DNA from: Rhodobacter sp.
Lineage (GTDB): Bacteria; Pseudomonadota; Alphaproteobacteria; Rhodobacterales; Rhodobacteraceae
Length of the DNA stretch: 35,018 nucleotides
Assembly (NCBI GenBank): GCA_003536295.1
Contig: DPZQ01000102.1
Coordinates: 3,004 to 38,021, forward strand
Direction of reading: 5' to 3'
Shown: positions 16,170 to 31,200 of the stretch, piece by piece
How positions within the stretch are numbered: position 1 is the stretch's first letter
How the letters are laid out: the number at the start of each line of letters is the position of its first letter
Translations under genes and position numbers: made by a program
The notes under the pieces: generated by a model
What the model was told of the DNA's origin: nothing
The model's input: the letters and a program-made list of their open reading frames with translations, nothing else
Database searches by the model: none

Positions 16170-19085
16170 TTATGCTGCGCTAATTTTGCAAAGTGTGGCT
16201 TTGGTCTCTTGCATCAATGTTACCGAGTCATACCCATAGGTCTGCGCGGTATTTGAGGCTTCTCCCAAAACATATGGATCCGCCCCTTTGGGGTAAACGC
16301 TTCTTCGGTCTTCGCCTTGGAAGTGGCCGCCGAAGTGGAATGGCATGAAGGCAACGCCCGCACCCACCCGTTCGGTCACCATAGCCATGACTTTGACTTT
16401 GCCACCCTCCGGACCTTCGACCCAAACCTGTTCGCCGTCACGTATGCCCAAATCATTGGCATCGCGTGTGTTGATCTCAACGAACATATCTTGCTGAAGT
16501 TCGGCCAACCATGGGTTTGACCGTGATTCATCTCCACCACCTTCATATTCAACCAAGCGACCTGAGGTCAGAATGATGGGGTAATCTTTGCTAAAGTCTT
16601 TGGCCTGGATTGACGCAAACATTGTTGGAAGACGATAAAGTTTGCGGTCTGAGTAAGTGGGATAATCTTCCACCAGATCGCGGCGGTTGGTGTAAAGCGG
16701 TTCGCGGTGTAACGGCACTGGATCTGGGAAGGTCCAAACCACAGCCCGTGCTTTGGCGTTGCCAAAAGGTGCGCAACCATGTTTGATTGCAACGCGCTGG
16801 ATGCCGCCAGAAAGGTCAGTTTTCCAGTTTGTTTTGACGCCAGCAACTTTGTCAATTGCCGCACGCTCATCCGCTGTGAGATCACCATCCCAACCCAAGT
16901 CAATCAGCATCTGCATCGTGAACTCTGGGTAACCATCAGTCAGCTCTGCACCTGGGTTTGACACTCCTTCGGCTAACAGATTGTCACCATTCCGTTCAAC
17001 ACCGTAACGTGCGCGGAAGGGTAATCCTCCTTCTGCTACAGGTTTGTTGATATCATAAAGGTTTGGTGTGCCTGGGTGACCCATTTCTGGGGTGCCCCAA
17101 CAGGGCCAAGGTAGGCCATAATATTCGCCATCAGCAGGGCCGCCAACCGCTTTCAACGTTGTTCTGTCAAAGGTATGTTGATTGGCCATATGAAGCTTGA
17201 TGCGCTCGGGGCTTTGGCCAGTATAGCCAACAGTCCACATTCCGCGGTTAAATTCGCGGGTTATGTCCTCTACCACGGGCTCATCGCCTTCTATTGCGAT
17301 ATTGCGGAACAAACGATCGGTGAAGCCAAATTTATCGGCAAACATTTTGATGATCGTATGGTCAGGCTTGCATTCGAACAAAGGTGCAACTACTTGGTCG
17401 CGCCACTGGAGCGAGCGATTAGAGGCGGTTACAGAACCACGGGTTTCGAACTGTGTCGCTGCAGGCAGCAAATAAACACCGTCTGTACGGTCATGCATAG
17501 CGGCCGCTACGGTTGGGTATGGGTCAATAACCACCAACATATCCAGTTTTTCCATCGCGGTTTTCATTTCGGTGCCGCGAGTTTGCGAGTTAGCGGCATG
17601 CCCCCAAAGAACCATGGCCCGAACATTGTCGTTTTGGTCCATATTGTCTTTGTTTTCAAGGACGCCATCGATCCAGCGCGAAACAGGAATACCGTTGGTA
17701 TTCATCAAGCTGATTGGCTTACCGTCGCCGTCAAGTGCATCATTTCCGTCAGCACCTTTCAGATTGACGAAACGACCCTTGAGCCAGTCAAGATCTTCTT
17801 GCCAAACGCGCGCCCAATGTGCCCATGAGCCGGCGGCGAGGCCGTAGTAGCCTGGCAAGTCATGTGAAAGAACGCCGAGATCAGTTGCACCTTGTACGTT
17901 ATCATGGCCGCGGAAAATATTTGTGCCACCGCCGGATACGCCCATATTGCCCAAGGCCAACTGCAATACGCAATAAGCGCGGGTATTGTTGTTTCCGTTG
18001 GTGTGCTGTGTGCCACCCATACACCAAATAACGGTTCCAGGGCGGTTGTTTGCTAAGGTGCGCGCAACACGCTCAAGCTGTTCCCCCGGCACGCCTGTGA
18101 CGCGCTCAGTTTCGGCGGGGTTCCATTTGGCAACTTCTTCCCTGATTTGATCCATTCCCCAGACGCGGCTGCGGATAAAGTCACGGTCTTCCCAGCCATT
18201 TTCAAAGATGTGCCACAAAATGCCCCAAATCAAAGCTACATCTGAACCTGGGCGCATTCTAACATATTCGTCAGCGTGTGCTGCTGTGCGCGTAAATCTT
18301 GGATCACAAACGATCAAAGGCGCGTTATTTTCTTCTTTGGCTTTGAGCATATGCAGCAATGAAACGGGGTGTGCTTCTGCGGGGTTTCCACCGATCAAGA
18401 ATATCGCTTTTGAGTTATGAATATCGTTATAGCTGTTTGTCATGGCGCCGTAGCCCCATGTATTGGCCACGCCAGCAACGGTAGTCGAGTGACAAATACG
18501 TGCTTGGTGGTCCACGTTGTTGGTACCCCAATAAGCTGCAAATTTGCGGAACAAATAGGCCTGCTCATTATTATGTTTTGCGCTGCCTAGCCAATAAACC
18601 GAGTCAGGGCCGCTTTCATCACGGATCTTGAGCATTTCTGCGCTGATCTCACTGATGGCATCTTCCCAGCTCATACGGATCCATTCGCCAGCGACTTTTT
18701 TCATAGGATATTTAAGGCGGCGTTCGCCATGCGCATGTTCACGCACCGCAGCCCCTTTTGCGCAATGCGCCCCAAGGTTGAACGGGCTGTCATAGCCGGG
18801 CTCTTGACCGACCCATACACCGTTGCGCACTTCTGCAATAACGGTGCAACCCACTGAGCAGTGGGTACAGATTGATTTGATGGTTTCCATCATAGCGTCT
18901 GATGACGCAGTGGTTGCAGCCCGCGCTACAGTGCCGCCCATTGCACCAATAGCCGCAAGGCCACCGATGGTAAGGCCCGATCCACGCAGGAACGAACGGC
19001 GGTCAACTGATTTCTCAGCCACGCTATTAAGGAATGCGGGGCGATGTGCCGAACTGGCTATTCCGTTAGTTTTTTTTCTGAGCAT
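16170..19085 (-). CDS. formate dehydrogenase catalytic (alpha) subunit, molybdopterin/tungstopterin, Tat-exported, Cys-type
   Basis: Twin-arginine leader DRRSFLRGSGLTIGGLAAIGA, [4Fe-4S] motif CTHCSVGCTV, and an active-site segment HQARICHSTTV with Cys where FdnG carries Sec. There is no in-frame TGA. Confidence 0.9.
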   Translation of the reverse strand: MLRKKTNGIASSAHRPAFLNSVAEKSVDRRSFLRGSGLTIGGLAAIGAMGGTVARAATTASSDAMMETIKSICTHCSVGCTVIAEVRNGVWVGQEPGYDSPFNLGAHCAKGAAVREHAHGERRLKYPMKKVAGEWIRMSWEDAISEISAEMLKIRDESGPDSVYWLGSAKHNNEQAYLFRKFAAYWGTNNVDHQARICHSTTVAGVANTWGYGAMTNSYNDIHNSKAIFLIGGNPAEAHPVSLLHMLKAKEENNAPLIVCDPRFTRTAAHADEYVRMRPGSDVALIWGILWHIFENGWEDRDFIRSRVWGMDQIREEVAKWNPAETERVTGVPGEQLERVARTLANNRPGTVIWCMGGTQHTNGNNNTRAYCVLQLALGNMGVSGGGTNIFRGHDNVQGATDLGVLSHDLPGYYGLAAGSWAHWARVWQEDLDWLKGRFVNLKGADGNDALDGDGKPISLMNTNGIPVSRWIDGVLENKDNMDQNDNVRAMVLWGHAANSQTRGTEMKTAMEKLDMLVVIDPYPTVAAAMHDRTDGVYLLPAATQFETRGSVTASNRSLQWRDQVVAPLFECKPDHTIIKMFADKFGFTDRLFRNIAIEGDEPVVEDITREFNRGMWTVGYTGQSPERIKLHMANQHTFDRTTLKAVGGPADGEYYGLPWPCWGTPEMGHPGTPNLYDINKPVAEGGLPFRARYGVERNGDNLLAEGVSNPGAELTDGYPEFTMQMLIDLGWDGDLTADERAAIDKVAGVKTNWKTDLSGGIQRVAIKHGCAPFGNAKARAVVWTFPDPVPLHREPLYTNRRDLVEDYPTYSDRKLYRLPTMFASIQAKDFSKDYPIILTSGRLVEYEGGGDESRSNPWLAELQQDMFVEINTRDANDLGIRDGEQVWVEGPEGGKVKVMAMVTERVGAGVAFMPFHFGGHFQGEDRRSVYPKGADPYVLGEASNTAQTYGYDSVTLMQETKATLCKISAA

Positions 19086-19141: not shown

Positions 19142-19333
19142 TTAAAAGCGTGCGGATTTGTAATAGGATTGCACGTGTAATGTGTCGCGCATGCCGCTGC
19201 CTTGGTTCAGCGTAGTTTCTGCTAAGGCGGCATCAGCGCCGGCAACTGTCGCTACTACTGCGACTGGTACCGTTGTTGCGATTTTTAAAAAATCGCGACG
19301 ATTTGATTTTTTTTCTCCTGATGAATTAGTCAT
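19142..19333 (-). CDS. small twin-arginine protein of formate dehydrogenase regions (formate dehydrogenase region TAT target family)
   Basis: A 63-aa protein with an NRRDFLKIATTVPVAVVATVAGADAALA Tat signal, located directly upstream of the alpha subunit. Confidence 0.7.
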   Translation of the reverse strand: MTNSSGEKKSNRRDFLKIATTVPVAVVATVAGADAALAETTLNQGSGMRDTLHVQSYYKSARF

Positions 19334-19423: not shown

Positions 19424-20035
19424 TTAGTCAGCAGTTATTCTAAAGGCTTCTTTTTCAATCGCCATAAAGTGGCGACCAATGGCCCCGATTGGCGCAAAGA
19501 ATAGAGATCCCTCCGCACCTTCGAGGTCAGTAAAGAAATGCCCTGCCCAAGGTGCTATGTGGCGGTTAAAGAAGGTCTTTTGTTGCGATAGGCTTACGAC
19601 TTCACCAAAGCGACCCATGATAAGGCCAGACATCATTTCAAGAACACTGGCAATATTATCTTCTGGCTCATAGATATTTTCAGCGCGCACGATGCTGTTT
19701 TTGGCCATGTCGTCGCGTAAGAGCGCAAGTGGCTTTTCATTTAAGAAACCTGTCATATAATAGCTACCATAGGGCAAAAGCTCTCCGCGGCCCAAACCAA
19801 TGAACAGCGCATTAAATTCACGCTCAACAGATTTCACCGAGCTTTGCACCGCCAGTTTGGCCAGAGTGCCAATTGCACGCCCCAGGTCTGTTTCATCGCC
19901 CGAAAGTTTAGCCGTTTTATCCAACAAAGCCTTGTTGGCTGGTCGAGCAAGTAGGGCGCTTAGAAAGTCATAAAGGTCAGCGCGCAGCTGATCTTCTTCG
20001 GTAATGACTTGGGTGGAATGGGCTGCTTGTGTCAT
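19424..20035 (-). CDS. TorD/DmsD-family redox-enzyme maturation chaperone
   Basis: About 200 aa, helical, with the LYDFLSALL...LF motif pattern of TorD-like chaperones. It sits upstream of a Tat-dependent molybdoenzyme, and its start overlaps the previous stop. Confidence 0.65.
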   Translation of the reverse strand: MTQAAHSTQVITEEDQLRADLYDFLSALLARPANKALLDKTAKLSGDETDLGRAIGTLAKLAVQSSVKSVEREFNALFIGLGRGELLPYGSYYMTGFLNEKPLALLRDDMAKNSIVRAENIYEPEDNIASVLEMMSGLIMGRFGEVVSLSQQKTFFNRHIAPWAGHFFTDLEGAEGSLFFAPIGAIGRHFMAIEKEAFRITAD

Positions 20036-20688
20036 GCTTGGCTTTCTAAGGCGTAGTCAAAATTAAACCGCATATGACGACGGCTGGTCAATTTTTGCGT
20101 GGTTTGAGCCGCATCTTCGGGTTCAAACTCTTCACCTGATAAGACTAGTGCCTCATCCTCAATAAACGTTTCTTGTGACATAACTTCGGGATTAGCAAGC
20201 TTTTCTTGTGCGGGCTCAAGGTCCTCGTCCGCCACTTCATCCTGTGTAGTAGCAGCAGCTTTTTCTTCAGCTTGGCTTATCAAGGCCTCGACATGTTTTA
20301 GCATGCCTTTTCCCACCACATAGGCCGACTTCATTCCCTCAAAGGTGACTGCAGCGTCTGTATAGTCTTCACCGTGATCTACTAAACCGTCAAGATTGGC
20401 CAAAACAGGGTTGCTGCGCCAAAGCGTACGCAGAGCGCGTCGGCGCAAACGGTCGGGAACGGCTTTTTGCATAAAGACGCTAAAATCATCACCCATTTTC
20501 AACGTGTCTGGATTGGGCAGCTCAAGTTCAGCCAACAGCTCCTCATCGGTTTTTTCGGAAATTGCTTTTTCTTGCGCGACTTTCTCTACTGCTTGTGCTT
20601 CAGCCTCAATCGCCAGTTTGGCTGCCAACTCTTCAGAGGCAACGGCTTTGCGACGGCGCGACCAGAATGTATCTTGGGCTTGAGCCAT
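20032..20688 (-). CDS. DUF3306-like protein (uncharacterised, acidic, probably disordered)
   Basis: N-terminal FWSRRRKAV motif, as I recall it for DUF3306, followed by an E/D/A-rich sequence. The ATG at 20688 overlaps the upstream stop (TGATG); GTG 20691 is an alternative. The family name is from memory and needs HMM confirmation. Confidence 0.55.
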   Translation of the reverse strand: MAQAQDTFWSRRRKAVASEELAAKLAIEAEAQAVEKVAQEKAISEKTDEELLAELELPNPDTLKMGDDFSVFMQKAVPDRLRRRALRTLWRSNPVLANLDGLVDHGEDYTDAAVTFEGMKSAYVVGKGMLKHVEALISQAEEKAAATTQDEVADEDLEPAQEKLANPEVMSQETFIEDEALVLSGEEFEPEDAAQTTQKLTSRRHMRFNFDYALESQA

Positions 20689-21248
20689 CACTGCACCACG
20701 TCAATGCTACGCGGAGCGCGGTACACGTCAGACAATTGTCGAATGCGTGCGTCGCCTTTACCATCATCTTTGGTGTCGATATTCTTGCGGTCGCGTTTGC
20801 GCTTAACAAAGACTTCTTCTACGTGATGTTGATCGCAAAATGCTTGGATTACAGCGATCAGCCCTTCGGGCATAGGCACCAGTTCAATCAGTCCGTCACC
20901 ACTGTCCATATAGTCTTGCCCATCATATGCCGATGCCGTGACAAAAGTTGGCACAAACGGGACCGCAGCGGTTTCATCTTCAGTTTCACGCATTACCACG
21001 ACCAACCCCGGTACTTTGGCCGATATGGTTACCTTATAGGCTTCAGTGTCTGATGACCAAAGATCCAAAGGCAGGGTCGCTGCATGATATTCAATAGTGT
21101 CGCCTTCGCTACGCATCTCACGCCACTGTGCGGGACCAGCGCCCGGAAGAACAGCAACGACTTGCCATACCCACTTAGCCCAGCGCGTCACACCCGGTGT
21201 GCGGCGCACTACAATGCCGACAGGTATCGTTTGTCTGGCTAATGGCAC
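20688..21248 (-). CDS. DUF3305-like protein (uncharacterised)
   Basis: A 186-aa protein with a GTG start preceded by GGGGAGAG. It is the first gene of the FDH operon and is paired with a DUF3306-like gene, as I recall for other proteobacterial FDH loci. The family name is from memory. Confidence 0.5.
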   Translation of the reverse strand: MPLARQTIPVGIVVRRTPGVTRWAKWVWQVVAVLPGAGPAQWREMRSEGDTIEYHAATLPLDLWSSDTEAYKVTISAKVPGLVVVMRETEDETAAVPFVPTFVTASAYDGQDYMDSGDGLIELVPMPEGLIAVIQAFCDQHHVEEVFVKRKRDRKNIDTKDDGKGDARIRQLSDVYRAPRSIDVVQ

Positions 21249-21577
21249 TTGCTCTCCCCGCGGTAGATTCTTCTTCCACTCTCAATCTTAATCATACGAA
21301 ATTGCCCGCGACAAAGAAAAAAACAGCAATTTGGGTGATTTTTCCAAAAAATCGTCAATTGGTGGACATTTTGGGTCATATGGTGTTATTGGAAACTTAA
21401 AATATAAGACATTTTGTCTTTTTCATAATAAATACTGCTTGTCTTTGGTGCTGTCTGGTTAATCAATCTTACCAATTGAGATAAAAGCGCTATTTTAATC
21501 TTTACCACTCTTCTGTTTGATGGATAGTGTAGTGTGCAAAGTGAAGCCCGTTTCAGATGCTGGGCAAAGGAGTTTAG
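21249..21577. promoter_or_regulatory. 329-bp AT-rich divergent control region between the FDH operon and the polyferredoxin operon
   Basis: No ORF is present, and the region is clearly more AT-rich than its flanks. It contains one GANTC (21266-21270), small palindromes (AAGAC-N5-GTCTT at about 21406-21420) and AAGGAG (21567-21572) before the ATG at 21578. The promoters themselves were not identified. Confidence 0.6.
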
Positions 21578-23533
21578 ATGAAAAAACGATTGGTGCTCTG
21601 CGATTGCCAAAAAACCCAAATTCTGGACGTCGATATTTTGAGTGCTGCGTCAGGATTTGAATGTTCGCGCGTCTTTACGGGCCTTTGCACACATCAATTA
21701 CCCGAGGCTCAAAAGCTTATCGCCGAAGGCAACGTGTTACTGGCATGTGGTCAAGAAACTGCCCGCTTTTCGGAATTGGCTGCCGATATTGGCGCGGATG
21801 AGCCCGATTTTATCGATTTACGCGACCGAGCAGGTTGGAGCGATGACACCAATGCGGCGCCCAAAATGGCGGCCCTTTTGGTGGATCATTTGCGGCCTGC
21901 ACCCCAGGTCAAAACCCGCGATGTCGAATCGCACGGCATGTGTTTGATTATTGGTTCTTCTAGCCATGTGTTTGAAGCTGCAGCACAATTAGCGCAAAGT
22001 CTTTCTGTGACCGTTTTGTTAACCGACCAAAAAGTTGACCTACCACTAACTCGCGATTATGAGGTGGTGGCGGGCAAAGTACGCAATGTCGCGGGCAGTT
22101 TTGGACGGTTTGAGCTGGTTATCGACGCGTTCCAATCTCTTGACCCATCTGGGCGTGGGGCCATGCGTCTGACCGTGCCACGTGACGGGGCACACACTCA
22201 GTGTGACCTGATCCTAGACTTGTCAGGTGAGGTGGCTTTGTTCCTGGCCCCCCATAAACGTGATGGCTATTTGCGCGCTGACCCAAAAAGCATGCCCGCT
22301 GTCGCACTAGTGGTTGCCCAGGCCGCCCAAATGGTGGGGACGTTTGAAAAGACCGTCTTTTTAAACTTTGAAGAACATCTCTGTGCCCATTCGAGGGCGT
22401 CCCAAAAAGGATGTAATCGCTGTTTAGACATATGCCCAACAGGCGCGATCATGTCTTTAGGTGAACATGTTGAAATTGACCCGATGATTTGTGCGGGTTG
22501 CGGCGCTTGTGCGGCGCTATGCCCGTCGGGGGCGATCACCTATGATGCGCCAAAAGCCTCTGACATTGTTAAAAGAATTGGCGCTATGGCTCAAGCCTAC
22601 AATAAAGCAGGCGGAACGGCTGCGCGCCTATTGGTCCATGATGATCATGGCGCTGAAATGATCAGCCTGGCCGCGCGATTTGACAAAGGTCTGCCCGCTG
22701 ACGTTATACCAATGCATGTGTCTGCGCTCTTGTCGGTTGGCCATGCTGAGATTTTGGCCGCATTGACCTCAGGTTTTGTGCATGTTGATATTTTACTGGC
22801 TCCAACCAGCGAGAAAGAAACGATCGATTTCGAAATTGCCCTAGCGGTTGCAATTGGTGCTTCGGGACGCGTTGGGCTTTTAGATATTTCTGATCCTTCA
22901 GATCTGTCCAAAGCGCTTTACGGCGTAAAGACAAGTGCGCTTGATTTTGATCCTATTTTGGCCTTGGGCAATCGCCGCCAAGTCACCCGTTTATCCGCTC
23001 AGGCCCTTAATCCCAACACAGAGCTTCCTTTGGCATTGCCCGAAGGTGCGCCTTATGGGGCGGTTTTGGTTAATACCGATAGCTGCACGCTGTGCCTGTC
23101 TTGCGTGTCGCTATGCCCCTCCGGAGCGCTGCTTGATAATCCCGATATGCCGCAGCTACGCTTTCAAGAAGATGCCTGTTTGCAATGTGGAATCTGTGCC
23201 TCGGCCTGTCCGGAAGATGCGATCACATTGGTGCCGCAGCTTGATATCAGCGCAATCGCCTTGGGCCAGCGCGTGTTGAACGAGGAAGAACCCTTCTGCT
23301 GCGTTGAATGCGGGGCAGCATTTGGGGTGAAATCAACAGTTGAAAAGATTTTAAAAAAACTAGACGGTAAACATTCCATGTTCGCCGAAGGCGGCGCAGG
23401 GCGGATCATTCAAATGTGTGATAAATGCCGCGTGAATGCGCAATTTCACCGCGAAAACAACCCCTTATCGGGGGGAGAGCGCCCGCGCATGCGCACCACA
23501 GAAGATTACCTAAGCAAACGGCGCGACCATTAA
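21578..23533 (+). CDS. 651-aa cytoplasmic polyferredoxin (two 2x[4Fe-4S] ferredoxin modules plus C-terminal Cys4 ribbon-like motif)
   Basis: Cys motifs C-x10-CNRCLDICP, CAGCGACAALCP, CTLCLSCVSLCP, CLQCGICASACP, and a terminal CCVECG...CDKCR. A strong AAGGAG RBS is present and there is no signal peptide. Confidence 0.8.
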   Translation: MKKRLVLCDCQKTQILDVDILSAASGFECSRVFTGLCTHQLPEAQKLIAEGNVLLACGQETARFSELAADIGADEPDFIDLRDRAGWSDDTNAAPKMAALLVDHLRPAPQVKTRDVESHGMCLIIGSSSHVFEAAAQLAQSLSVTVLLTDQKVDLPLTRDYEVVAGKVRNVAGSFGRFELVIDAFQSLDPSGRGAMRLTVPRDGAHTQCDLILDLSGEVALFLAPHKRDGYLRADPKSMPAVALVVAQAAQMVGTFEKTVFLNFEEHLCAHSRASQKGCNRCLDICPTGAIMSLGEHVEIDPMICAGCGACAALCPSGAITYDAPKASDIVKRIGAMAQAYNKAGGTAARLLVHDDHGAEMISLAARFDKGLPADVIPMHVSALLSVGHAEILAALTSGFVHVDILLAPTSEKETIDFEIALAVAIGASGRVGLLDISDPSDLSKALYGVKTSALDFDPILALGNRRQVTRLSAQALNPNTELPLALPEGAPYGAVLVNTDSCTLCLSCVSLCPSGALLDNPDMPQLRFQEDACLQCGICASACPEDAITLVPQLDISAIALGQRVLNEEEPFCCVECGAAFGVKSTVEKILKKLDGKHSMFAEGGAGRIIQMCDKCRVNAQFHRENNPLSGGERPRMRTTEDYLSKRRDH

Positions 23534-23596
23534 CGCGCTTGCCAAGACAAACGAAATAAAGACCAACTTGTTGGTCAATAAAATAAAGGATACCTT

Positions 23597-23797
23597 ATGG
23601 ATGACGAGTCAAACATTGCGCTGCGCAAATTCCTTAAGCAAGTGGGCGTCACCTCACAACAAGCCATAGAGGAGGCGCTGCGCGCCGCAGGCGATCATGC
23701 CGCAGGGCAAGAGTTTGTCGCAACCATGACCTTGACGGTCAAGGGCCTAGACCTTGAACATCAAGTGACAGGCACAGTCAAAGGACCTGCAAAATGA
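23597..23797 (+). CDS. 66-aa conserved hypothetical protein (DUF6494-like)
   Basis: The motif RKFLKQVGVTSQQAIEEAL matches my recollection of DUF6494. AAGGA lies 6 nt upstream, and the stop overlaps the next start (ATGA). Confidence 0.55.
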   Translation: MDDESNIALRKFLKQVGVTSQQAIEEALRAAGDHAAGQEFVATMTLTVKGLDLEHQVTGTVKGPAK

Positions 23798-24876
23798 GTG
23801 TGACCCGCGATCTGGTTCTTGAGCAGCTTAAAACCGTTCTAAACCCCCTCAATGGCAAAGATATCGTCTCGGCGGGTATGGTCAAAGCCCTGACCGTTGA
23901 CGAGGGCGTTGTACGCTTTGTTTTAGAAATTGATCCCGCCCGCGCTAAAGCGATGGAAGCTGCCCGCGCAGAAGCAGAAACTAAAATCAAAGCTTTGGGC
24001 GCTACCAGCGTCTCTATCGTTATGACCGCCCATGCCGCTGCTCCACCACCGCCTGACCTAAAAGGGGGGGGGCATGGCCATGCGCATGGTGCTGCGAAAG
24101 CCACAGGCCCTGAAAAAATACCAGGTGTTGATCGCATTATTGCAATTGCCTCCGGCAAAGGCGGGGTTGGTAAATCAACAGTAGCAGCTAATTTGGCCAC
24201 TGCCCTTGCCGCAGAAGGTCGACGGGTGGGTTTACTTGACGCTGATGTTTATGGACCTTCGCAACATAGAATGCTGGGTATCACCGGGCGTCCTGCCTCG
24301 CCTGACGGCAAAACCATTTTGCCTTTGCGCAACCATGGCGTAACTTTGATGTCTCTAGGTCTGATGACGCAAGAAGATGAAGCCGTTGTCTGGCGTGGAC
24401 CCATGTTGATGGGGGCCTTGCAGCAGATGTTGTTTCAAGTGCAATGGGGCGCTTTGGATATCCTGATCGTTGATTTGCCACCTGGAACGGGTGACGTGCA
24501 AATGACCCTAACCCAAAAGGCGCAGGTTGATGGCGCGATCATCGTGTCAACACCGCAGGATATTGCATTGCTAGATGCCCGTAAAGGCATTGATATGTTT
24601 AACAAGATGAACACACCGATAATTGGCTTGATAGAAAATATGTCGACTCATATTTGTTCAAATTGCGGCCATATTGAACACATTTTCGGCCATGGCGGCG
24701 TCACAAAAGAAGCCAAAAAGCTAGGTGCGCCTTTGTTGGCCGAAATACCGCTGCATATCGATATCCGCACGACCTCGGACGGCGGAGCGCCTATCGTTGT
24801 GTCTCGCTCAAATTCCGAGCAGGCGGAGATTTTTCGAACACTGGCGCGTCATTTGATTGCAACAGGACAAGCATGA
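23794..24876 (+). CDS. apbC: Mrp/NBP35/ApbC-family Fe-S cluster carrier ATPase
   Basis: N-terminal DUF59-like domain, deviant Walker A SGKGGVGKST, and a CSNCGH CxxC cluster-bridging motif. It has an unusual PPPPDLKGGGHGHAHG linker. Confidence 0.85.
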   Translation: MSVTRDLVLEQLKTVLNPLNGKDIVSAGMVKALTVDEGVVRFVLEIDPARAKAMEAARAEAETKIKALGATSVSIVMTAHAAAPPPPDLKGGGHGHAHGAAKATGPEKIPGVDRIIAIASGKGGVGKSTVAANLATALAAEGRRVGLLDADVYGPSQHRMLGITGRPASPDGKTILPLRNHGVTLMSLGLMTQEDEAVVWRGPMLMGALQQMLFQVQWGALDILIVDLPPGTGDVQMTLTQKAQVDGAIIVSTPQDIALLDARKGIDMFNKMNTPIIGLIENMSTHICSNCGHIEHIFGHGGVTKEAKKLGAPLLAEIPLHIDIRTTSDGGAPIVVSRSNSEQAEIFRTLARHLIATGQA

Positions 24877-25598
24877 ACCTAGTTCCACGTTTTCCACCCT
24901 TGCTGCATGGTTTGGCGACGGGCCCAACCAACCCATTTACCGTAGCATGTGATCAAGCCAAAGAAGGGGTTGACGCCGGCCTTCTGACCTGGTCTGTCGG
25001 CTTCGATCGTATGCGTGCAGCTCTTGTATTGGCGCCTGAAACGGCCCTTGAGGTGGCCATGATTGGTTATGGCGCAACCGCAGTTGCGCTGCAAAACGCT
25101 TTGGGCGTTCTGGTCCCACCTGAAACCGCAGTGCATTTGCAATGGGATGGCGGGCTTCGCCTGAATGGTGGCAGCAGTGGGAAATTCTATTTCGCTGCGT
25201 CAACCAGCGACCCAAAGGCCGTTCCCGATTGGTTGGTAATCGGCCTTGAGCTACATCTTGAGCTTCCCATGGACTATGACCCTGCCAAAACCCCTGACCT
25301 TACGGCGCTTTATGCTGAAGGTTGCGGTGATATTGACCCGATTGAACTTTTGGAGTCTTGGGCACGCCACAGCATTTTGTGGATCAATGAAAGCGAAACT
25401 GCTGCTGGGCGTGCCAATGTGCACCGCGAGTTTGCGGGCCTTTTGTGGAAAAAAGGCGAGCAAGTCAGCATCCCTTTTCAGGGCCAAACAATCACAGGCA
25501 CTTTGATGGGGCTTGATGAAAGTTTCGGGGCCTTAATCAAAACTGAACAGGGCCAAACCCACCTTATTTCGCTGACAACCCTAGTTAAAGAGGTCTAG
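24873..25598 (+). CDS. biotin/lipoate protein ligase-fold protein, degenerate (BPL-like plus C-terminal DUF4444-like domain)
   Basis: The segment HLQWDGGLRLNGGSSGKF resembles the BirA KWPND...KxxGIL strand. The C-terminal ITGTLMGLDESFGALIK resembles the BirA SH3-like tail. The start overlaps the apbC stop (ATGA). Confidence 0.55.
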   Translation: MNLVPRFPPLLHGLATGPTNPFTVACDQAKEGVDAGLLTWSVGFDRMRAALVLAPETALEVAMIGYGATAVALQNALGVLVPPETAVHLQWDGGLRLNGGSSGKFYFAASTSDPKAVPDWLVIGLELHLELPMDYDPAKTPDLTALYAEGCGDIDPIELLESWARHSILWINESETAAGRANVHREFAGLLWKKGEQVSIPFQGQTITGTLMGLDESFGALIKTEQGQTHLISLTTLVKEV

Positions 25599-25600
25599 CC

Positions 25601-26080
25601 ATGTATCTTGCTCGCGCCATTCACTTTGATGAAAGTGACATGAATGTTTTTCATAAGCCCGCCCGTACGGGTGAATGGGCTATTTCAGGTGGTTTTGAAT
25701 TTTCAAATTGGAGCGATGGCGATCTGGTAGGCAAGGCCCGTCAGGCCTTTGCGAATGGTTGGCTGGGAATTGAAACATTTGGCCGTGTCACCTTTGTTGC
25801 CGTGACCAAGGTTGAGCCAACTGAATATCAAGCTTTGCTTGAACATTTGGCCAACCACTTCGTAGAAGTTTATGGCGCCCCCTCAAAAGAGGCCGGCTTG
25901 ACCGTCGCACAAGAAGAGATACAGCATATGGCCGATCTGTGCGACGACCATGACCCCAACACCGTTTTAACAGTGTTGCGTGAATTGTCTGATGTGGGTG
26001 TGAAAGAGCAGTTTCGCTTTATTGAAGCTTCGGCTGCTGATCTTGATCAGTTGGCCATTCACGGCTCGCTTGATGAGTGA
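25601..26080 (+). CDS. 159-aa conserved hypothetical protein (possibly DUF6505)
   Basis: The ATG lies 2 nt after the previous stop, which suggests translational coupling. I recognise no catalytic motif, and the family name is an uncertain recollection. Confidence 0.45.
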   Translation: MYLARAIHFDESDMNVFHKPARTGEWAISGGFEFSNWSDGDLVGKARQAFANGWLGIETFGRVTFVAVTKVEPTEYQALLEHLANHFVEVYGAPSKEAGLTVAQEEIQHMADLCDDHDPNTVLTVLRELSDVGVKEQFRFIEASAADLDQLAIHGSLDE

Positions 26081-26117: not shown

Positions 26118-26918
26118 TTATTTAGGTTGCGCGTTAAAGACAAACAGCTTTTTCCCGTCGATCTGATAGCCTTCGATTAATGCTTTGGCTCGTGGGCTGA
26201 CCAGCCACGCCTCCAACCGCTTAGCGGCTGCAACATTCATATGGGCGTGTTTTTCAGGATTGACGGGAATATAGGCATATTGGTTGAATAACAGCGGATC
26301 ACCTTCAAAAACGATTGCAAGATCTTGTTTGTTGCCAAAGTTCAGCCAGCTGGCGCGGTCTGCCAAAATATAAGCATTCATGCCGGCGGCGGTGTTCAAA
26401 GCAGCGCCCATCCCTTGGCCGACTGACTTATACCAGTCACCTTCGGGAGTGATATGGGATTTTTTCCAAAGGTTCAGCTCCACCTTATGAGTACCGCTAT
26501 CGTCGCCACGGCTGACAAAATCGGCTTTGCTTTGCGCGATTTTGTCAAAGGCTTCCACCGTTAGGGCTGATGATTTGGCTTGGGCTGGGTCGACGCTTGG
26601 GCCGATGATAATGAAATCATTATACATAATTTCGCGGCGATGGGTACCAAAGCCTTGGTCTATGAACTTATCTTCTGCGGGGCGTGAGTGCACCAAAATT
26701 GCGTCTACGTCGCCTTGCTCTCCCAATTTGATTGCTTGGCCAGTGCCCACGATCAAAAGCTGTACATTCAGATCAATATCGGCCTGAATTTCTGGTAAAA
26801 GCACTTCCGCCAAGCCCGAGTTGGCGAATGAGGTTGTCACGGCCATTTTAAAATCTTCGGCAATTGATGCCAATGGTGCACAGGTCAAAACGGCGGCTAA
26901 AACCGCTTTTTTTATCAT
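26118..26918 (-). CDS. tupA: tungstate ABC transporter periplasmic binding protein (TupA-like)
   Basis: Signal peptide MIKKAVLAAVLTCAPLASIA, then the MAVTTSFANSGL motif (the TTS anion-binding motif of TupA-type proteins) and HSRP...GTH. The start overlaps the tupC stop (ATGA). Confidence 0.7.
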   Translation of the reverse strand: MIKKAVLAAVLTCAPLASIAEDFKMAVTTSFANSGLAEVLLPEIQADIDLNVQLLIVGTGQAIKLGEQGDVDAILVHSRPAEDKFIDQGFGTHRREIMYNDFIIIGPSVDPAQAKSSALTVEAFDKIAQSKADFVSRGDDSGTHKVELNLWKKSHITPEGDWYKSVGQGMGAALNTAAGMNAYILADRASWLNFGNKQDLAIVFEGDPLLFNQYAYIPVNPEKHAHMNVAAAKRLEAWLVSPRAKALIEGYQIDGKKLFVFNAQPK

Positions 26919-27631
26919 GCCAAGATGCCTCCGTTCAAAAATGTTAAAGCTTCGCTCGTTGCCGGGGTGGTAAAGAATGTAGCGCTGGGGCCTTGGTCAT
27001 GCAAAAGACCGCGATACAAAAATATAACGTCATCGGCCAAGCGGCGGGCTTGGGCGACGTTATGGGTCGACATGATCAGCCTTGTACCATTGGCTTTTTC
27101 ATCCATCAAAATGGCTTCGATGTCTTTGGTGGCGCTGCCGTCTAAATTGGCGCATGGTTCGTCCAAAAACAGCACTTGGGGCTTGCGGACCAGTGCGCGC
27201 GCCAGCGCTAGCTTTTGCTTTTCTCCGCCCGAAATTGCTGTGCCCATTACCCCAAGCAGACCACCCAACCCAATTCTTTCGGCTATCTCTTGCGCGCGAG
27301 CATAAGCTGTGGCTTTCGTGGACCCATCAACAAGTAGCGGATAGGCAATGTTGTCCAAAACGGTGCGGCGCAAAAGAATAGGCGTTTGAAAAACAAAAGC
27401 CTGAGATTTGCGGGCTGCAAGGGTGGTGCAGGCCCAATATAATCGGCCGGATCTGATATGCTCTAGCCCATGCATAGTTCGTAAAAAAGTGGTTTTGCCG
27501 CTACCGTTGGGCCCAAGTACAACAGTAATGCCGCGCCCCGACAGCTTATAGTCCAGCGGACCCAAAATACGTTTACCCTGTTTGACAACCTGCACTTGCG
27601 ACAGTGTCAGAGGAAGGATCGGGGTTACCAT
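26915..27631 (-). CDS. tupC: tungstate ABC transporter ATP-binding protein (TupC-like)
   Basis: Walker A GPNGSGKT, signature ISGGEKQK, and Walker B LFLDEP. It overlaps the tupB stop by 7 nt. Confidence 0.7.
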   Translation of the reverse strand: MVTPILPLTLSQVQVVKQGKRILGPLDYKLSGRGITVVLGPNGSGKTTFLRTMHGLEHIRSGRLYWACTTLAARKSQAFVFQTPILLRRTVLDNIAYPLLVDGSTKATAYARAQEIAERIGLGGLLGVMGTAISGGEKQKLALARALVRKPQVLFLDEPCANLDGSATKDIEAILMDEKANGTRLIMSTHNVAQARRLADDVIFLYRGLLHDQGPSATFFTTPATSEALTFLNGGILA

Positions 27632-28329
27632 CGGCTGCCCCTCTCGGTGCGTGAGATATGGTGCATCACCAGATTAACGAGTAATGCACTGGCTATCAGT
27701 ACAAATCCCAATGCTAAAGCCATGGCGAAATTGCCTCGCCCCGTCTCTAGTGAGATGGCAGTGGTTAACACCCGCGTGGCATGTTCGATATTGCCACCCA
27801 CGATCATAATCGCCCCCACCTCGCCTATGGCGCGGCCAAAGCCTGTCAGGCTGGCAGTCATCAGGCCGCGCTTACTGTCCCATATTAAAGTACGGGTGCG
27901 TTGCCAGCGGCTGGTGTTGATTGAAATTAGTAGATCGTGATATTCAGCCCAAAGATCACGTACGACCTGATGAGCAACCGACGCGATGATCGGCGATATA
28001 ATGATGGTTTGGGCGATCACCATGGCTGAGGTTGTGAACAAAAGCCCCAACACCCCTAAGGGTCCCGAGCGCGACAAGATCACATAAACCATCAACCCGA
28101 TGACTACAGGCGGTAAGCCCATCAAGGCGTTCATTACCGCAATGACCAAACGGCGAAATCGAAACCGCGATATGGCTAGCCACGCCCCCAATGGCAGGCC
28201 AATGGCCACAGATAAAAGCGTGGCTGTGAGCGTCACTTTGAACGAGCGAGCGGTGATTTCGATTAAGGTTGGGTCAAGACTGATAATCAGCCTGCCGGCT
28301 TGGGTCAAGCCGGCCCAAATATCATTCAT
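27625..28329 (-). CDS. tupB: tungstate ABC transporter permease (TupB-like)
   Basis: A 234-aa polytopic membrane protein of the small anion-ABC permease type, in the same operon as the binding protein and ATPase. Confidence 0.7.
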   Translation of the reverse strand: MNDIWAGLTQAGRLIISLDPTLIEITARSFKVTLTATLLSVAIGLPLGAWLAISRFRFRRLVIAVMNALMGLPPVVIGLMVYVILSRSGPLGVLGLLFTTSAMVIAQTIIISPIIASVAHQVVRDLWAEYHDLLISINTSRWQRTRTLIWDSKRGLMTASLTGFGRAIGEVGAIMIVGGNIEHATRVLTTAISLETGRGNFAMALALGFVLIASALLVNLVMHHISRTERGSRW

Positions 28330-28442: not shown

Positions 28443-31199
28443 TTAGGCGGCTGACATTTTTACCGCCGCAAATTTAAACTCAGGAATTTTTCCAAATGGA
28501 TCAACGGCAGAGTTGGTTAGAATATTTGCTGCAGCTTCGACATAGGCAAATGGCACAAAGACCATATCTTTGGCTACGCTGCGATCTGGCCGTGCCAACA
28601 TCACAATCGAGCCGCGCCGAGTTTCAAGCCGCACCATACCGCCCAGCTCAACCCCCAATTCGCGCAACGTTTCCGGATGGACCGAGCAGTTGGCCTCCGG
28701 TTCGATGCTGTCTAGCACTATCGAGCGGCGCGTCATAGAGCCGGTGTGCCAATGCTCAAGCTGACGGCCCGTGGTTACGATCATTGGGTATTCTGCATCT
28801 GGCAATTCGTCAGGCGAAATAATCGACGCGGGTGTGAATTTGGCACGTTTGTTTGCGCGTGGGAAGCCATCACTAAATACAATGGGTTGGCCTGGATCTT
28901 GTGGGCTTAAGCTTGGGTAAGTGACTGCGTTTTCCACGCTAAGACGATCCCAGGTGATATTGTCGAGTGACTTCATATTCAACTTCATCTCGGCAAAGAT
29001 ATCGGCTGGTGAGTTATAGCTCCAGCCCAGGCCCAAACGATTGGCCAGCTGCGTCGTGATCAACCAATCTTCGCGCGCCTCCCCAGGAGGGGTGACTGCT
29101 GCACGTCCCATTTGTACTTGTCGATTGGTATTGGTTACTGTACCGGATTTTTCATAAAAAGCCGCAGCAGGCAAAATGACATCTGCATAATTGGCAGTCT
29201 CTGTGATGAAAATATCTTGCACGATCAGATGCTCAAGCTTTTCTAGTGCGTGGCGCGCATGGCTAACATCGGGGTCTGACATAGCGGGATTTTCACCCAA
29301 AATATACATGCCCTTGATGCTTCCTTGGTGTACCGCTTCTAAGATTTCTGTCACGGTCAGACCTTTTTGATTTGAAAAGTCTTGCGAACCCCAAACAGTG
29401 GTAAAATTTGAACGGATTTGGTCATCTGTGACGGTTTGATAGTCGGGCAAGAACATCGGAATTAGACCTGCATCTGAGGCTCCTTGTACGTTGTTTTGGC
29501 CCCGTAAAGGATGCAGACCTGCGCCTGGTTTGCCGACATTCCCTGTCATCAAAGCCAAAGAAATTAAGCAACGTGAGTTATCGGTGCCGTGGATATGTTG
29601 GCTAATCCCCATGCCCCAAAAGATCATGCCTGCTTTGGCATTGGCAAATAACCGAGCTACCTCGCGCAAAGTCTGGGCTGGAATACCACAGATTTCTTCC
29701 ATTTTTTCAGGTGAGAAATTGGCCAGATGTGCCTTCTCAGCTTCCCAGTTTTCGGTATATTTATCGATATAATCTTGGTCATAAAGACCTTCCTCGACGA
29801 TGACATGCATGATTGCATTCAGCATCGAAACATCTCCGCCTGGACGAAACTGCAACATATGTTCCGCATGGCGCTTCATTGCAGTGCCGCGCGGATCCAT
29901 GATGATCAGTTTGCCGCCGCGTTTGGTGAATTGTTTGAAGAAGGTTGCAGCAACAGGGTGGTTTTCGGTTGGATTAGCGCCGATCACAATCGCTACGTCA
30001 GAATGTTCAATTTGGTTAAAGGTCGCTGTCACGGCTGCCGAGCCCACATTCTCCATCAAGGCTGCGACAGATGAGGCGTGGCAAAGTCTGGTGCAATGGT
30101 CGACATTATTATGACCAAATCCTTGGCGGATCAGTTTTTGAAAGGTGTAGGCCTCTTCGTTGGTGCATTTGGCCGAACCAAAGCCAGCGATTGTGGCACC
30201 GCCATGTGCTTGCGCTAAGTTGGACATGCCATTGGCCGCAAAATCAAGCGCCTCATCCCATGTGGCTTCGCGGAAATGGGTAAAGGGATTGCCAGGGTCG
30301 ACATTCAGACCTTTGGGTGCATTTTCTTTGCGGATCAAAGGTTTTGTTAAACGGTGTGGGTGGTGGATATAGTCATATCCAAACCGCCCCTTCACGCAAA
30401 GCCGCCCCTCATTTGCAGGCCCATTGATACCTTCGACATAAACGACCTTATTTTCCTTCATGCGCAAGCTGACCTGACATCCAACCCCACAGAATGGGCA
30501 GATGGATTGAACTTCTTTGTCAAAGTCCATCCGATCACCTAACTGGGCACTATCAACGACCGAAGCGGGCATCAACGCGCCTGTGGGGCAGGCTTGCACA
30601 CATTCGCCGCAAGCCACGCAGGTGCTGTCACCCATCGGATCGCCAAAGTCAAAGGTCGGATAGGCGTCGTGCCCGCGCCCTGCCATGCCGATCACATCAT
30701 TAACCTGCACGTCACGGCAAGCCCGCACGCAAAGGCCACATTGGATACAGGCGTCTAAATTGACCCGCATTGCCACATGGCTATCATCAAGCAAGGGAAT
30801 GTGTTCTTTCTTTAGGCTTGGAAAACGACTTTTGGCCACGCCATTTGCTTTAGCCATATCCCAAAGATGGCTGGATTTATCATGGGCTTGGTCTTGGTTT
30901 GGCTGATCTGCAAGCAAAAGCTCCATCACCATTGCGCGCGACTTTATGGCCCGCTCACTAGTGGTTTTGACAACCATACCATTGGTGGCATTACGACAGC
31001 ACGAGGCGGCAAGCGTGCGCTCCCCATCAATCTCAACCACGCAGGCGCGGCAGTTGCCGTCAGGATTATAACCCATTTGGTCTTTGTGGCAAAGATGCGG
31101 GATTTCGGTACCGTTGCGTTTTGCCACGTCCCAAATAGTTTCGCCTTGCGCTGCGGTGACTTCTGTCCCGTCTAGCATGAATTTGATTTGCTCAGTCAT
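28443..31199 (-). CDS. fdhF: NAD-dependent formate dehydrogenase alpha subunit (FdsA/Fdh1A type, Cys-type)
   Basis: N-terminal [2Fe-2S] and NuoG-like Fe-S motifs (CHKDQMGYNPDGNCRACVVE, CIQCGLCVRAC, CVACGECVQACP, CPFCGVGC) and an active-site segment HCTRLCHASSV. There is no Tat signal. The start is set at ATG 31199 (GAGG 6 nt upstream), 1 nt after the beta gene stop. Confidence 0.9.
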   Translation of the reverse strand: MTEQIKFMLDGTEVTAAQGETIWDVAKRNGTEIPHLCHKDQMGYNPDGNCRACVVEIDGERTLAASCCRNATNGMVVKTTSERAIKSRAMVMELLLADQPNQDQAHDKSSHLWDMAKANGVAKSRFPSLKKEHIPLLDDSHVAMRVNLDACIQCGLCVRACRDVQVNDVIGMAGRGHDAYPTFDFGDPMGDSTCVACGECVQACPTGALMPASVVDSAQLGDRMDFDKEVQSICPFCGVGCQVSLRMKENKVVYVEGINGPANEGRLCVKGRFGYDYIHHPHRLTKPLIRKENAPKGLNVDPGNPFTHFREATWDEALDFAANGMSNLAQAHGGATIAGFGSAKCTNEEAYTFQKLIRQGFGHNNVDHCTRLCHASSVAALMENVGSAAVTATFNQIEHSDVAIVIGANPTENHPVAATFFKQFTKRGGKLIIMDPRGTAMKRHAEHMLQFRPGGDVSMLNAIMHVIVEEGLYDQDYIDKYTENWEAEKAHLANFSPEKMEEICGIPAQTLREVARLFANAKAGMIFWGMGISQHIHGTDNSRCLISLALMTGNVGKPGAGLHPLRGQNNVQGASDAGLIPMFLPDYQTVTDDQIRSNFTTVWGSQDFSNQKGLTVTEILEAVHQGSIKGMYILGENPAMSDPDVSHARHALEKLEHLIVQDIFITETANYADVILPAAAFYEKSGTVTNTNRQVQMGRAAVTPPGEAREDWLITTQLANRLGLGWSYNSPADIFAEMKLNMKSLDNITWDRLSVENAVTYPSLSPQDPGQPIVFSDGFPRANKRAKFTPASIISPDELPDAEYPMIVTTGRQLEHWHTGSMTRRSIVLDSIEPEANCSVHPETLRELGVELGGMVRLETRRGSIVMLARPDRSVAKDMVFVPFAYVEAAANILTNSAVDPFGKIPEFKFAAVKMSAA

Positions 31200-31200
31200 A

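Follow-up and report, generated by a model that had tools for sequence, protein, structure and literature searches.

Gene Layout and Coupling

We analysed a 35,018-nucleotide (nt) stretch of DNA from Rhodobacter sp. (GenBank assembly GCA_003536295.1, contig DPZQ01000102.1, positions 3,004 to 38,021), here called the window, which carries a formate dehydrogenase (FDH) of the kind exported by the twin-arginine translocation (Tat) system. Its structural genes share an operon with genes for DUF3305, DUF3306 and a TorD-like chaperone, and across a divergent spacer stands a second operon of five accessory genes, for a polyferredoxin, DUF6494, an Mrp/ApbC ATPase, a protein of the biotin protein ligase (BPL) fold and DUF6505. 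All positions below are those of the window, except where a related locus is named; ORF stands for open reading frame and aa for amino acids.

14238-15527, minus strand: gamma subunit, cytochrome b membrane anchor (429-aa ORF; probable start near 15464)
15564-16157, minus strand: FDH3-type beta subunit (197 aa; four ferredoxin-type Cys motifs; signal peptide absent)
16170-19085, minus strand: FDH alpha, the catalytic subunit (971 aa)
19142-19333, minus strand: small Tat-signal protein (63 aa), probable counterpart of FdhX (SO_4508)
19424-20035, minus strand: chaperone of the TorD/DmsD/NarJ family (PF02613)
20032-20691, minus strand: DUF3306 ORF (probable start ATG at 20688, giving about 218 aa)
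20688-21248, minus strand: DUF3305 (186 aa), cytoplasmic; opens the FDH operon
21249-21577, no strand: divergent AT-rich promoter spacer (329 bp)
21578-23533, plus strand: polyferredoxin (651 aa), cytoplasmic; counterpart of SO_4506
23597-23797, plus strand: DUF6494 (66 aa; PF20104)
23794-24876, plus strand: ATPase of the Mrp/ApbC/NBP35 family (360 aa; PF10609 and PF01883)
24873-25598, plus strand: biotin/lipoate-ligase-fold (BPL-fold) protein (241 aa; PF16917)
25601-26080, plus strand: DUF6505 (159 aa; PF20115)

An earlier note on this DNA, made from the sequence alone, had described these genes as tightly coupled operons running back to back. All twelve ORFs lie in the ORF map where it had put them, and profile searches confirm the families that it gave; every accessory protein also scores above the Pfam gathering score of its family. 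The coupling is also as described. The minus strand reads TGATG at 20690-20686 (CAG TGA TGG), with the DUF3305 stop TGA followed by a DUF3306 ATG at 20688, which is therefore probably the real start of DUF3306. The DUF3306 and TorD-like genes overlap by the four letters ATGA at 20035-20032 (minus strand); on the plus strand the ORF ends imply two further ATGA overlaps (23794-23797 and 24873-24876) and, at 25599-25600, a gap of 2 nt. The 329-bp spacer is AT-rich as claimed, at 37.1% GC vs. 51.8% for the window.

The same note had counted seven accessory proteins and found no signal peptide in them; in a simple hydropathy and motif scan, which is not a trained predictor, none of the seven combines a twin-arginine motif with a hydrophobic stretch, and none has a transmembrane-like segment. 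By the same scan Tat leaders are confined to the small protein (RRDFLK) and the alpha subunit (RRSFLR). The note's picture of operons wrapped around one FDH needs amending: the operons are indeed back to back, but the five-gene plus-strand operon sits between two formate dehydrogenases, the second of which is treated below. FdhD and FdhE had been reported missing, and our scan of window ORFs of 110 aa or longer likewise found no FdhD-NarQ or FdhE domain. The absence of FdhD is not meaningful, because relatives in Sinorhizobium, Microvirga and gammaproteobacterial loci place FdhD beside the same cluster, where MobA, MoeA and MobB genes also stand.

The Formate Dehydrogenase

The alpha subunit scores 1389 bits to PDB 9VAP_A, the FdhA of Shewanella oneidensis, and has the Pfam domains Molybdop_Fe4S4, Molybdopterin and Molydop_binding. 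Its ORF is uninterrupted, with the Cys-His active-site motif ICHS at residue 198, so that the metal ligand is assigned as Cys and not Sec from the position of this motif rather than from a structure. The alpha subunit also has a Tat leader of its own (RRSFLR, residues 29-34) besides the separate small Tat protein, a feature that the earlier note overlooked. The beta subunit passes the NCBIfam FDH3_beta equivalog model NF038355 (347.9 bits, cut-off 240) and scores 336 bits to 9VAP_B. The gamma subunit passes TIGR01583 (143 bits, cut-off 116) and matches PF01292; its ORF is about twice as long as the FdnI-type profile. Past an internal Met (MIAKS...) it shows a Sec-type signal and then an extra N-terminal domain of about 120 aa ahead of the cytochrome b part, and this Met, near 15464, is probably the true start. 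In the small protein RRDFLK occupies residues 12-17 and precedes a hydrophobic stretch, and the C-terminal H-V-x-x-Y-Y region is conserved. It scores 32.2 bits to TIGR02811 ("formate dehydrogenase region TAT target"), short of the 48.45 cut-off, yet its position is conserved in all related loci.

By these matches the enzyme is of the FdhX-A-B-C type, termed FDH3 in Methylorubrum and FdhA1B1C1 in Shewanella, and it is predicted to be Cys-ligated and Tat-exported and to pass electrons to quinone through cytochrome b. The solved homologue, SoFdhAB of S. oneidensis MR-1 (SO_4509/4510; PDB 9VAP), is an O2-tolerant Cys-tungsten enzyme for which 0.78 W per protein is reported, along with about five [4Fe-4S] clusters, and its genes are accompanied by those for the FdhT chaperone (SO_4507) and the small FdhX protein (SO_4508) (PMC13066108). 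The window enzyme plausibly uses tungsten as well, since SoFdhAB contains it and since Tup-like, MobB and MoeA genes adjoin.

Linkage of the Accessory Genes to the Enzyme

DUF6505, the most specific of the families, was used as the locus marker. A scan of one genome per species gave at least 567 species with a relative; the best 80 loci, all from Rhodobacterales, were taken together with one look-up, and the window proteins were mapped onto these 81 loci by tblastn with a 10-kb flank. The BPL-fold protein was found in 80, Mrp in 79, the polyferredoxin and DUF3305 in 73 each, TorD in 71, DUF3306 and DUF6494 in 69 each, and FDH alpha in 67; as a set the genes thus recur in about 70 of the 81, more often than chance would allow. 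Misses fell mostly on short contigs or on loci where insertions of 3-6 kb push FDH past the 10-kb flank. Three loci (L043, L051 and L062) have the DUF6494-Mrp-BPL-DUF6505 series, and FDH was not found within 8 kb upstream; in L043 six upstream minus-strand ORFs gave no Pfam match. L075 has part of this stretch in common with L043, and its polyferredoxin gene is found another 5.7 kb upstream; the three loci are probably insertions.

Linkage in other orders is a stronger test because gene order differs there. The 42-sequence alignment (A2) was too diverse for finding loci and a narrower one returned Rhodobacterales only; wider diversity was sampled through plasmid records and single look-ups. 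Sulfitobacter and Pseudosulfitobacter carry the entire block on repABC plasmids of about 200 kb (209 kb in one Sulfitobacter), in the order sigma-54 regulator, gamma-beta-alpha-X-TorD-DUF3306-DUF3305 (X being the small Tat protein), polyferredoxin-DUF6494-ApbC-BPL-DUF6505, Tup-like transporter. A co-directional string characterizes Hyphomicrobiales, BPL-DUF6505-DUF6352-DUF3305-DUF3306-TorD-X-alpha-fdh3B-gamma, with the polyferredoxin divergent and Mrp absent (Sinorhizobium, Bradyrhizobium and Microvirga from annotated records, Methylobacterium by tblastn); two metagenomic contigs show the same pattern. DUF6494, FdhD, MobA, MobB, MoeA-like and Tup-like genes lie close to the cluster in Sinorhizobium and Microvirga. 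An operon of uncultured Gammaproteobacteria runs DUF3305-DUF3306-polyferredoxin-TorD-X-alpha-beta, with FdhD, a PBP-like regulator, DUF6494 and DUF6505 alongside, and gammaproteobacterial clusters lack BPL and Mrp. A Stappiaceae genome has the layout of the window.

Taken over 14 diverse contexts outside the top 80, DUF6505 adjoins an FDH3-type enzyme in 11. The other three are a DUF7715-like outlier, a lone gene, and an Mrp-DUF6505 pair (L097, 8923-10453) among ribosomal and tRNA genes on a Rhodobacteraceae metagenomic contig, where FDH3, BPL and polyferredoxin were all not found within 10 kb. Conversely, FDH3-beta occurs on 99 plasmid records vs. 78 for DUF6505, and operons of Azospirillum (TorD-X-A-B-C) and Variovorax (X-A-B-small-C with a sigma-54 regulator) show no DUF, polyferredoxin or BPL gene within 13 kb, although such genes could lie elsewhere or be missing from incomplete plasmid gene tables. 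As these operons lack the accessory genes nearby, an FDH3-type enzyme can apparently be made without them. The linkage is thus strong but not absolute, and the accessory set is not obligatory for the enzyme type.

The functional tie that the earlier note drew, to a Tat-exported Cys-type FDH with a small Tat partner, gains support from this linkage within Rhodobacterales, on repABC plasmids and under different gene orders. Its two stricter versions fail. The seven genes do not travel as one unit, and the exceptions just given, on both sides, rule out a strictly dedicated module. The arrangement is instead layered: to a core of X-A-B-C some lineages add TorD, more add DUF3305, DUF3306 and the polyferredoxin, and DUF6505 and DUF6494 form the next layer; within our sample only Alphaproteobacteria have BPL together with Mrp or DUF6352. 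The accessory genes accordingly fall into a shared core (TorD-like, DUF3305, DUF3306, polyferredoxin) and a lineage-specific extension (DUF6494 and DUF6505, to which Alphaproteobacteria add the BPL-fold protein and Mrp/ApbC or DUF6352).

The reading that we prefer, with a probability of roughly 0.6, is that the region is a cytoplasmic pre-export biogenesis gene set for the FdhX-A-B-C formate dehydrogenase. Besides enzyme identity and linkage, it draws support from the curated MobA-DUF3305 fusion family, the motifs kept by Mrp, the Mrp-DUF6505 pair, the molybdenum- and tungsten-cofactor genes around the set and the like responses of the Shewanella genes, all described below. The linkage itself might have a more trivial cause. 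Mrp/ApbC is normally a housekeeping iron-sulfur (Fe-S) carrier, DUF6505 accompanies it in a neighborhood of ribosomal and tRNA genes that shows no FDH over 10 kb, and two other DUF6505 homologues are unlinked to any FDH; the plus-strand genes could then be general housekeeping genes, with DUF6505 as a partner of Mrp, whose proximity to FDH is inherited synteny without a specific tie. We regard this as very improbable. Inherited synteny alone is insufficient, because the linkage outlasts rearrangement across orders and classes as well as transfer onto plasmids, and in Hyphomicrobiales BPL and DUF6505 share a co-directional string with fdh3.

DUF3305, DUF3306 and the TorD-like Chaperone

The DUF3305 protein matches PF11749 with 124 bits and aligns to the C-terminal half of the NCBIfam family NF011058, "MobA, DUF3305 domain-containing" (E 1.8e-16). 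This curated domain fusion with MobA would tie DUF3305 to the synthesis of the bis-molybdopterin guanine dinucleotide (bis-MGD) cofactor. The DUF3306 protein matches PF11748 (66 bits); it has a conserved N-terminal W-S-R-R motif in the alignment and an acidic, low-complexity C-terminal half. The gene for the TorD-like protein (PF02613, Nitrate_red_del, 97 bits) is translationally coupled inside the FDH operon. Its product stays below the equivalog cut-offs for TorD (47 bits vs. 132) and DmsD (28 vs. 162), and we take it as the counterpart of Shewanella FdhT (SO_4507); a TorD-fdh clade has been described (PMC4464133).

Fragments resembling the Tat consensus occur near the N-termini of DUF6494 (R-K-F-L-K) and DUF3306 (W-S-R-R-R-K), and a hydrophobic region follows neither. 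That these two proteins mimic a leader for the TorD-like chaperone is pure speculation.

DUF6494, Mrp, the BPL-fold Protein and DUF6505

DUF6494 (PF20104, 87 bits) has a conserved N-terminal R-K-F-L-K-x-V-G-V-T-S-Q motif, and its gene stands close to the FDH cluster in the Sinorhizobium, Microvirga and gammaproteobacterial loci. The Mrp protein combines a ParA/NUBPL domain (PF10609, 330 bits) with an N-terminal FeS_assembly_P (DUF59) domain (PF01883, 58 bits), and at 340.5 bits falls just under the ApbC equivalog cut-off of 348. It carries the deviant Walker A motif GKGGVGKS at residue 121 and the CxxC cluster-bridging motif CSNC at residue 288.

The BPL-fold protein matches BPL_LplA_LipB_2 (PF16917) with 199 bits, and its C-terminal match to DUF4444 (PF14563), 31.1 bits, is just below the gathering score of 31.6. 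It is homologous over residues 6-238 to PDB 3BFM (E 3e-62). The earlier note had called this ligase fold degenerate, and an alignment of 10 homologues agrees: where the canonical-like L088 relative keeps a Gly/Arg-rich loop the FDH-linked proteins have a 15-residue deletion, and Ser, Val, Leu or Ala replaces the Lys after the WP(N/D) motif; in BirA and LplA the loop binds the ligand and the Lys is catalytic. Despite its fold family the protein is therefore probably not a biotin or lipoate ligase. A 594-aa fusion of Mrp and BPL (L001, 8217-10001) was considered as Rosetta-stone evidence and rejected: the junction is Arg-rich nonsense produced by a frameshift in a long-read metagenome-assembled genome, and none of the other 80 loci has such a fusion.

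DUF6505 (PF20115, 264 bits) is 74-81% identical across genera among the best 120 matches, in a small family of 480 clusters at 50% identity among 1.84 billion representatives. An AlphaFold2 model built from 78 diverse sequences has a predicted local distance difference test score (pLDDT) of 89.5 and a predicted alpha/beta fold; an earlier run with 28 close homologues reached pLDDT 62 and was not used. A Foldseek comparison of the model with PDB gave no neighbor (best match E 0.39, TM-score at most 0.27), and sequence searches of PDB with DUF6505 and DUF3305 gave chance-level matches only. The persistence of the Mrp-DUF6505 pair without FDH argues for an Fe-S role and suggests the Fe-S carrier as the main partner of DUF6505. 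In Hyphomicrobiales-type clusters DUF6505 is followed by DUF6352 (335 aa; L082-L087, for instance L082 14534-15550), whereas in Rhodobacterales Mrp stands upstream of BPL. We considered DUF6352 as a divergent Mrp and discarded the idea: it has no Walker A or P-loop motif and no CxxC, and so is not an obvious functional replacement.

The Polyferredoxin and a Possible Redox Role

The polyferredoxin has multiple Fer4 domains in Pfam, arranged as four ferredoxin-type Cys motifs, a C-terminal Cys4 site, an N-terminal set of four Cys, and two alpha/beta domains without Fe-S sites. Among 84 orthologs 15 of the 16 ferredoxin-motif Cys residues are invariant (C308 is kept in 81), as is the C-terminal Cys4; the N-terminal set C8/C10/C37/C57 is kept in 79-80. 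This last set is missing from the shorter gammaproteobacterial forms (about 575 aa, without the N-terminal Cys domain), whose gene is located inside the FDH operon. The protein is not NapF, which has about 150 aa and four clusters: TIGR00402 gives 44 bits vs. a cut-off of 102, and the 651 aa include extra domains. The ferredoxin domains score best against HdrA, FwdF and MvhB, and a profile of the parts without Fe-S sites gives marginal matches to the N-terminal regions of three HdrA chains (E 0.007-0.011); in our reading of the A5 consensus no GxGxxG motif is seen in the Rossmann-like segment. HdrA-like Fe-S flavoproteins themselves combine an N-terminal Cys domain with an FAD-binding thioredoxin-reductase fold and a ferredoxin domain inserted into it.

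In many relatives the polyferredoxin and DUF6494 genes are separated by one more gene, which runs on the opposite strand, encodes about 250 aa and belongs to no Pfam family (L001 7209-7946; L091 7136-7900; homologous stretches in L043, L060, L075 and L078). The window lacks it, with a gap of only 63 bp at this place. Between DUF3306 and TorD, the metagenomic locus L086 (12931-17723) encodes both subunits of a 2-oxoacid:ferredoxin oxidoreductase as well as a GltD-like Fe-S flavoprotein; a large polyferredoxin was not seen within 10 kb.

These properties bear on a different function for the set, that of a redox-support or repair module in which the polyferredoxin, partnered by DUF6505, BPL and DUF6494, would be a cytoplasmic source of low-potential electrons, for a reductive step such as sulfuration or reduction of the cofactor or to keep clusters reduced in an aerobe, and would neither donate clusters nor act as chaperone. 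The four invariant ferredoxin motifs with two further Cys4 sites fit such a role, as do the HdrA, FwdF and MvhB scores, the aerobic hosts and the O2 tolerance of the solved tungsten homologue; an oxidoreductase and flavoprotein in the accessory string of L086, with no large polyferredoxin in view, likewise favor a redox role for the polyferredoxin. On the other hand the HdrA match is weak (E about 0.01) and GxGxxG is missing, the L086 oxidoreductases could be metabolic passengers, and Mrp, as a cluster carrier, is a better fit to assembly. We judge a purely redox function unlikely.

Several results nevertheless weigh against the pre-export biogenesis set that we prefer. The polyferredoxin, with its marginal HdrA similarity, resembles an electron-transfer protein more than a scaffold, and its large form is out of view in L086; alignments of DUF3305, DUF3306, DUF6494 and DUF6505 show no conserved Cys or His sites suggestive of metal or cluster binding; three of the 14 diverse DUF6505 contexts are without FDH, and the Azospirillum and Variovorax operons have none of the DUF, polyferredoxin or BPL genes in reach; and the literature searched held no experiment bearing on any of the DUF or BPL proteins.

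Neighboring Tungsten and Second-FDH Genes

The right-hand part of the window, beyond DUF6505, holds the following minus-strand genes, all of which the earlier note overlooked:

26118-28329, minus strand: TupA-like, ABC-ATPase and TupB-like transporter genes, downstream of DUF6505
28443-31268, minus strand: second FDH alpha, 1343 bits to the tungsten FDH1 of Methylorubrum extorquens (PDB 7VW6/7E5Z)
31201-32886, minus strand: NuoE-NuoF fusion, FDH1-beta-like partner by profile match
33327-34967, minus strand: MobB-MoeA fusion, 7 kb from the five-gene operon

TupA and TupB are the best NCBIfam matches of the transporter proteins, with 202 and 171 bits, under the equivalog cut-offs of 400 and 320. 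Because the second-FDH alpha and NuoE-NuoF ORFs overlap by 68 nt, the start of this alpha is probably later than the GTG listed. A tungsten-specific cofactor pathway of Methylorubrum, published in 2026, uses a MoeA1-MobB platform, MobA and FdhD to make the tungsten cofactor for FDH1, with moeA1-mobB-tupBCA clustered (PMC13197769). The right-hand part of the window matches this pathway, and by its gene content the region looks like a tungsten and formate island. In several lineages the accessory set has molybdenum-cofactor (Moco) and tungsten genes around it (FdhD, MobA, MobB, MoeA, Tup); in Methylobacterium bullatum three MoeA-like genes abut the BPL/DUF6505/FDH3 cluster on its upstream side.

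With an operon lying between two FDHs, beside TupABC-like genes and near a MobB-MoeA fusion, one may ask whether its five genes serve tungsten-cofactor enzymes generally, the adjacent cytoplasmic NAD-linked FDH1-type enzyme included, and not the periplasmic FDH specifically. The Methylorubrum genes that make the cofactor for FDH1 (PMC13197769), the MoeA-like genes of M. bullatum, and the maturation of heterologous FDH1 alpha, which is an unsolved bottleneck (PMC13396061), speak for such a broad service. Yet only two of the 81 loci (L035 and L079) have a true FDH1 alpha (77-80% identity) beside the set, and only three an FDH1-beta-like gene. Tup-like genes are adjacent in about 20 of the 81. 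The Hyphomicrobiales module is co-directional with fdh3 and has no FDH1 nearby, the Sulfitobacter plasmid block likewise has FDH3 and Tup without FDH1, and the published FDH1 tungsten pathway is reported as defined without these genes (PMC13197769). A general tungsten function is on this balance quite unlikely, though less so than mere inherited synteny, and biogenesis of the periplasmic enzyme is the better account of the operon.

Spacer and Regulation

No Moco riboswitch or other RNA was found in the spacer with Rfam (window at the gathering threshold, spacer at E up to 1). A sigma-54 promoter, suggested by the regulator that flanks the operon, was sought in the spacer and rejected: the -24/-12 consensus is absent, matches across the window are no more than chance, and two of 61 related spacers match. 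The 9-mer GGACATTTT(G) recurs, in the window at 21361-21380 and in 9 of the 61 related divergent spacers, which is too weak to call GGACATTTT a binding site.

A sigma-54-dependent response regulator is encoded at 12700-14085 (minus strand), just downstream of gamma, with no adjacent kinase in the window. Similar regulators flank FDH3-type operons in Variovorax, a gammaproteobacterium and a Sulfitobacter plasmid (loci L093, L090 and L098). In those loci a Cache-domain protein accompanies the regulator, and in the gammaproteobacterium this protein is a sensor kinase with HisKA/HATPase domains.

In S. oneidensis transcriptome tables SO4503 is FdhD, SO4504 and SO4505 are conserved hypotheticals and SO4506 is an Fe-S protein. 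A so2426 mutant shows lowered expression of SO4504, SO4505, SO4506 and SO4509, and SO_4506, SO_4507, SO_4509 and SO_4510 respond alike in RyhB RNA-seq tables.

Comparison with Known Systems

The nearest described relative is the S. oneidensis MR-1 cluster SO_4503-SO_4511, which encodes FdhD, two conserved hypotheticals, the Fe-S protein SO_4506, FdhT, FdhX and FdhA1B1C1. Its alpha and beta subunits are close homologues, and it shares with the window the TorD-like FdhT and, probably, the small Tat protein FdhX. We equate SO_4504-4506 with DUF3305, DUF3306 and the polyferredoxin by position, annotation and the gammaproteobacterial layout rather than by sequence comparison. A gammaproteobacterial DUF6505 query returned no Shewanella protein, in one word-filtered search that was not aimed at Shewanella and in which BPL and DUF6494 were not searched there. 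The FDH3 of Methylorubrum extorquens (fdh3ABC) is alike in that the window beta passes the FDH3_beta model. M. bullatum has a BPL-DUF6505-DUF6352-DUF3305-TorD-alpha-beta-gamma cluster; unlike the window, Methylobacteriaceae have DUF6352 and no Mrp.

In 2015 Bay, Chan and Turner described fdh operons that include DUF3305 and DUF3306, a fer4/hybA gene, a small protein termed "fdh tat" and a chaperone of the TorD/DmsD family (PMC4464133). That paper labels DUF3305 and DUF3306 "putative membrane proteins", whereas our hydropathy scan shows no transmembrane-like segment in either, and it makes no mention of BPL-fold, DUF6505, DUF6494 or Mrp genes. The 2026 papers on the tungsten pathway (PMC13197769) and on SoFdhAB (PMC13066108) do not discuss these four either. 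The 241-aa protein has a direct homologue in the orphan structure PDB 3BFM, "biotin protein ligase-like protein of unknown function". Maturation by NapF/NapG with TorD/DmsD/NapD is similar in that a cytoplasmic polyferredoxin and a leader-binding chaperone are encoded with a Tat-exported bis-MGD enzyme; the window polyferredoxin is four times the size of NapF. The MobB-MoeA fusion and Tup-like genes of the window are as in the Methylorubrum tungsten pathway (PMC13197769). DUF3305, DUF3306, DUF6494, DUF6505 and the probably dead ligase fold have no counterparts in Nap/TorD-type or tungsten-pathway systems.

To the earlier note's statement that no role had been shown experimentally for this gene set we would therefore add a distinction. 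It stands for the BPL-fold protein, DUF6505, DUF6494 and Mrp, for which nothing was found, but the part with DUF3305, DUF3306, TorD and fer4 had already been described bioinformatically in 2015. The literature searched held no mention of DUF6505, DUF6494, DUF4444, their Pfam or TIGRFAM accessions, or 3BFM. What is known, then, is the enzyme, FdhT, FdhX and the DUF3305/DUF3306/TorD/fer4 operon class; in the papers searched we found nothing that connects this enzyme with the BPL-fold protein, DUF6505, DUF6494 or Mrp.

Proposed Pathway and Significance

Gene identities, cytoplasmic character, operon coupling and conserved linkage are established here; every biochemical step that follows is one that we infer. 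All accessory proteins would act in the cytoplasm ahead of export. The TorD-like protein, if it behaves like its family, would hold the alpha precursor by its Tat leader until bis-MGD is inserted. DUF3305 and DUF3306, judged by context, may act at the hand-over of this cofactor, because DUF3305 also occurs fused to MobA. Mrp would carry [4Fe-4S] clusters, as is usual in its family; DUF6505 may work with Mrp or in Fe-S delivery; and the polyferredoxin may supply clusters or low-potential electrons. Together Mrp, the polyferredoxin and DUF6505 would load the five [4Fe-4S] clusters of alpha and beta or keep them reduced. The probably dead ligase-fold protein and DUF6494 might be adaptors, which is a guess.

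A bolder proposal we put forward tentatively and as doubtful: DUF6505, the probably dead BPL-fold protein, DUF6494, DUF3305/DUF3306 and the polyferredoxin may be unrecognised cytoplasmic maturation machinery needed for the O2-tolerant Cys-tungsten periplasmic FDHs of aerobes. Such machinery might couple Fe-S delivery by Mrp and hand-over of the tungsten form of bis-MGD to the Tat-leader chaperone, and its absence from standard hosts would help account for poor heterologous maturation.

Cys-tungsten FDHs of the SoFdhAB and FDH1 types are leading biocatalysts for CO2 reduction owing to their O2 tolerance, and maturation is what limits making them (PMC13066108, PMC13396061, PMC13197769). Five or six conserved linked genes are left unaccounted for by the helpers already known (TorD-like chaperone, FdhD, MoeA1-MobB, MobA), and if these genes are not maturation factors their strong linkage still needs explaining. 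If they are, they would represent new steps in the biogenesis of molybdo- and tungsto-enzymes, and a function would be in hand for four DUF families and for an orphan PDB structure. They would also be concrete genes to co-express in producing such enzymes.

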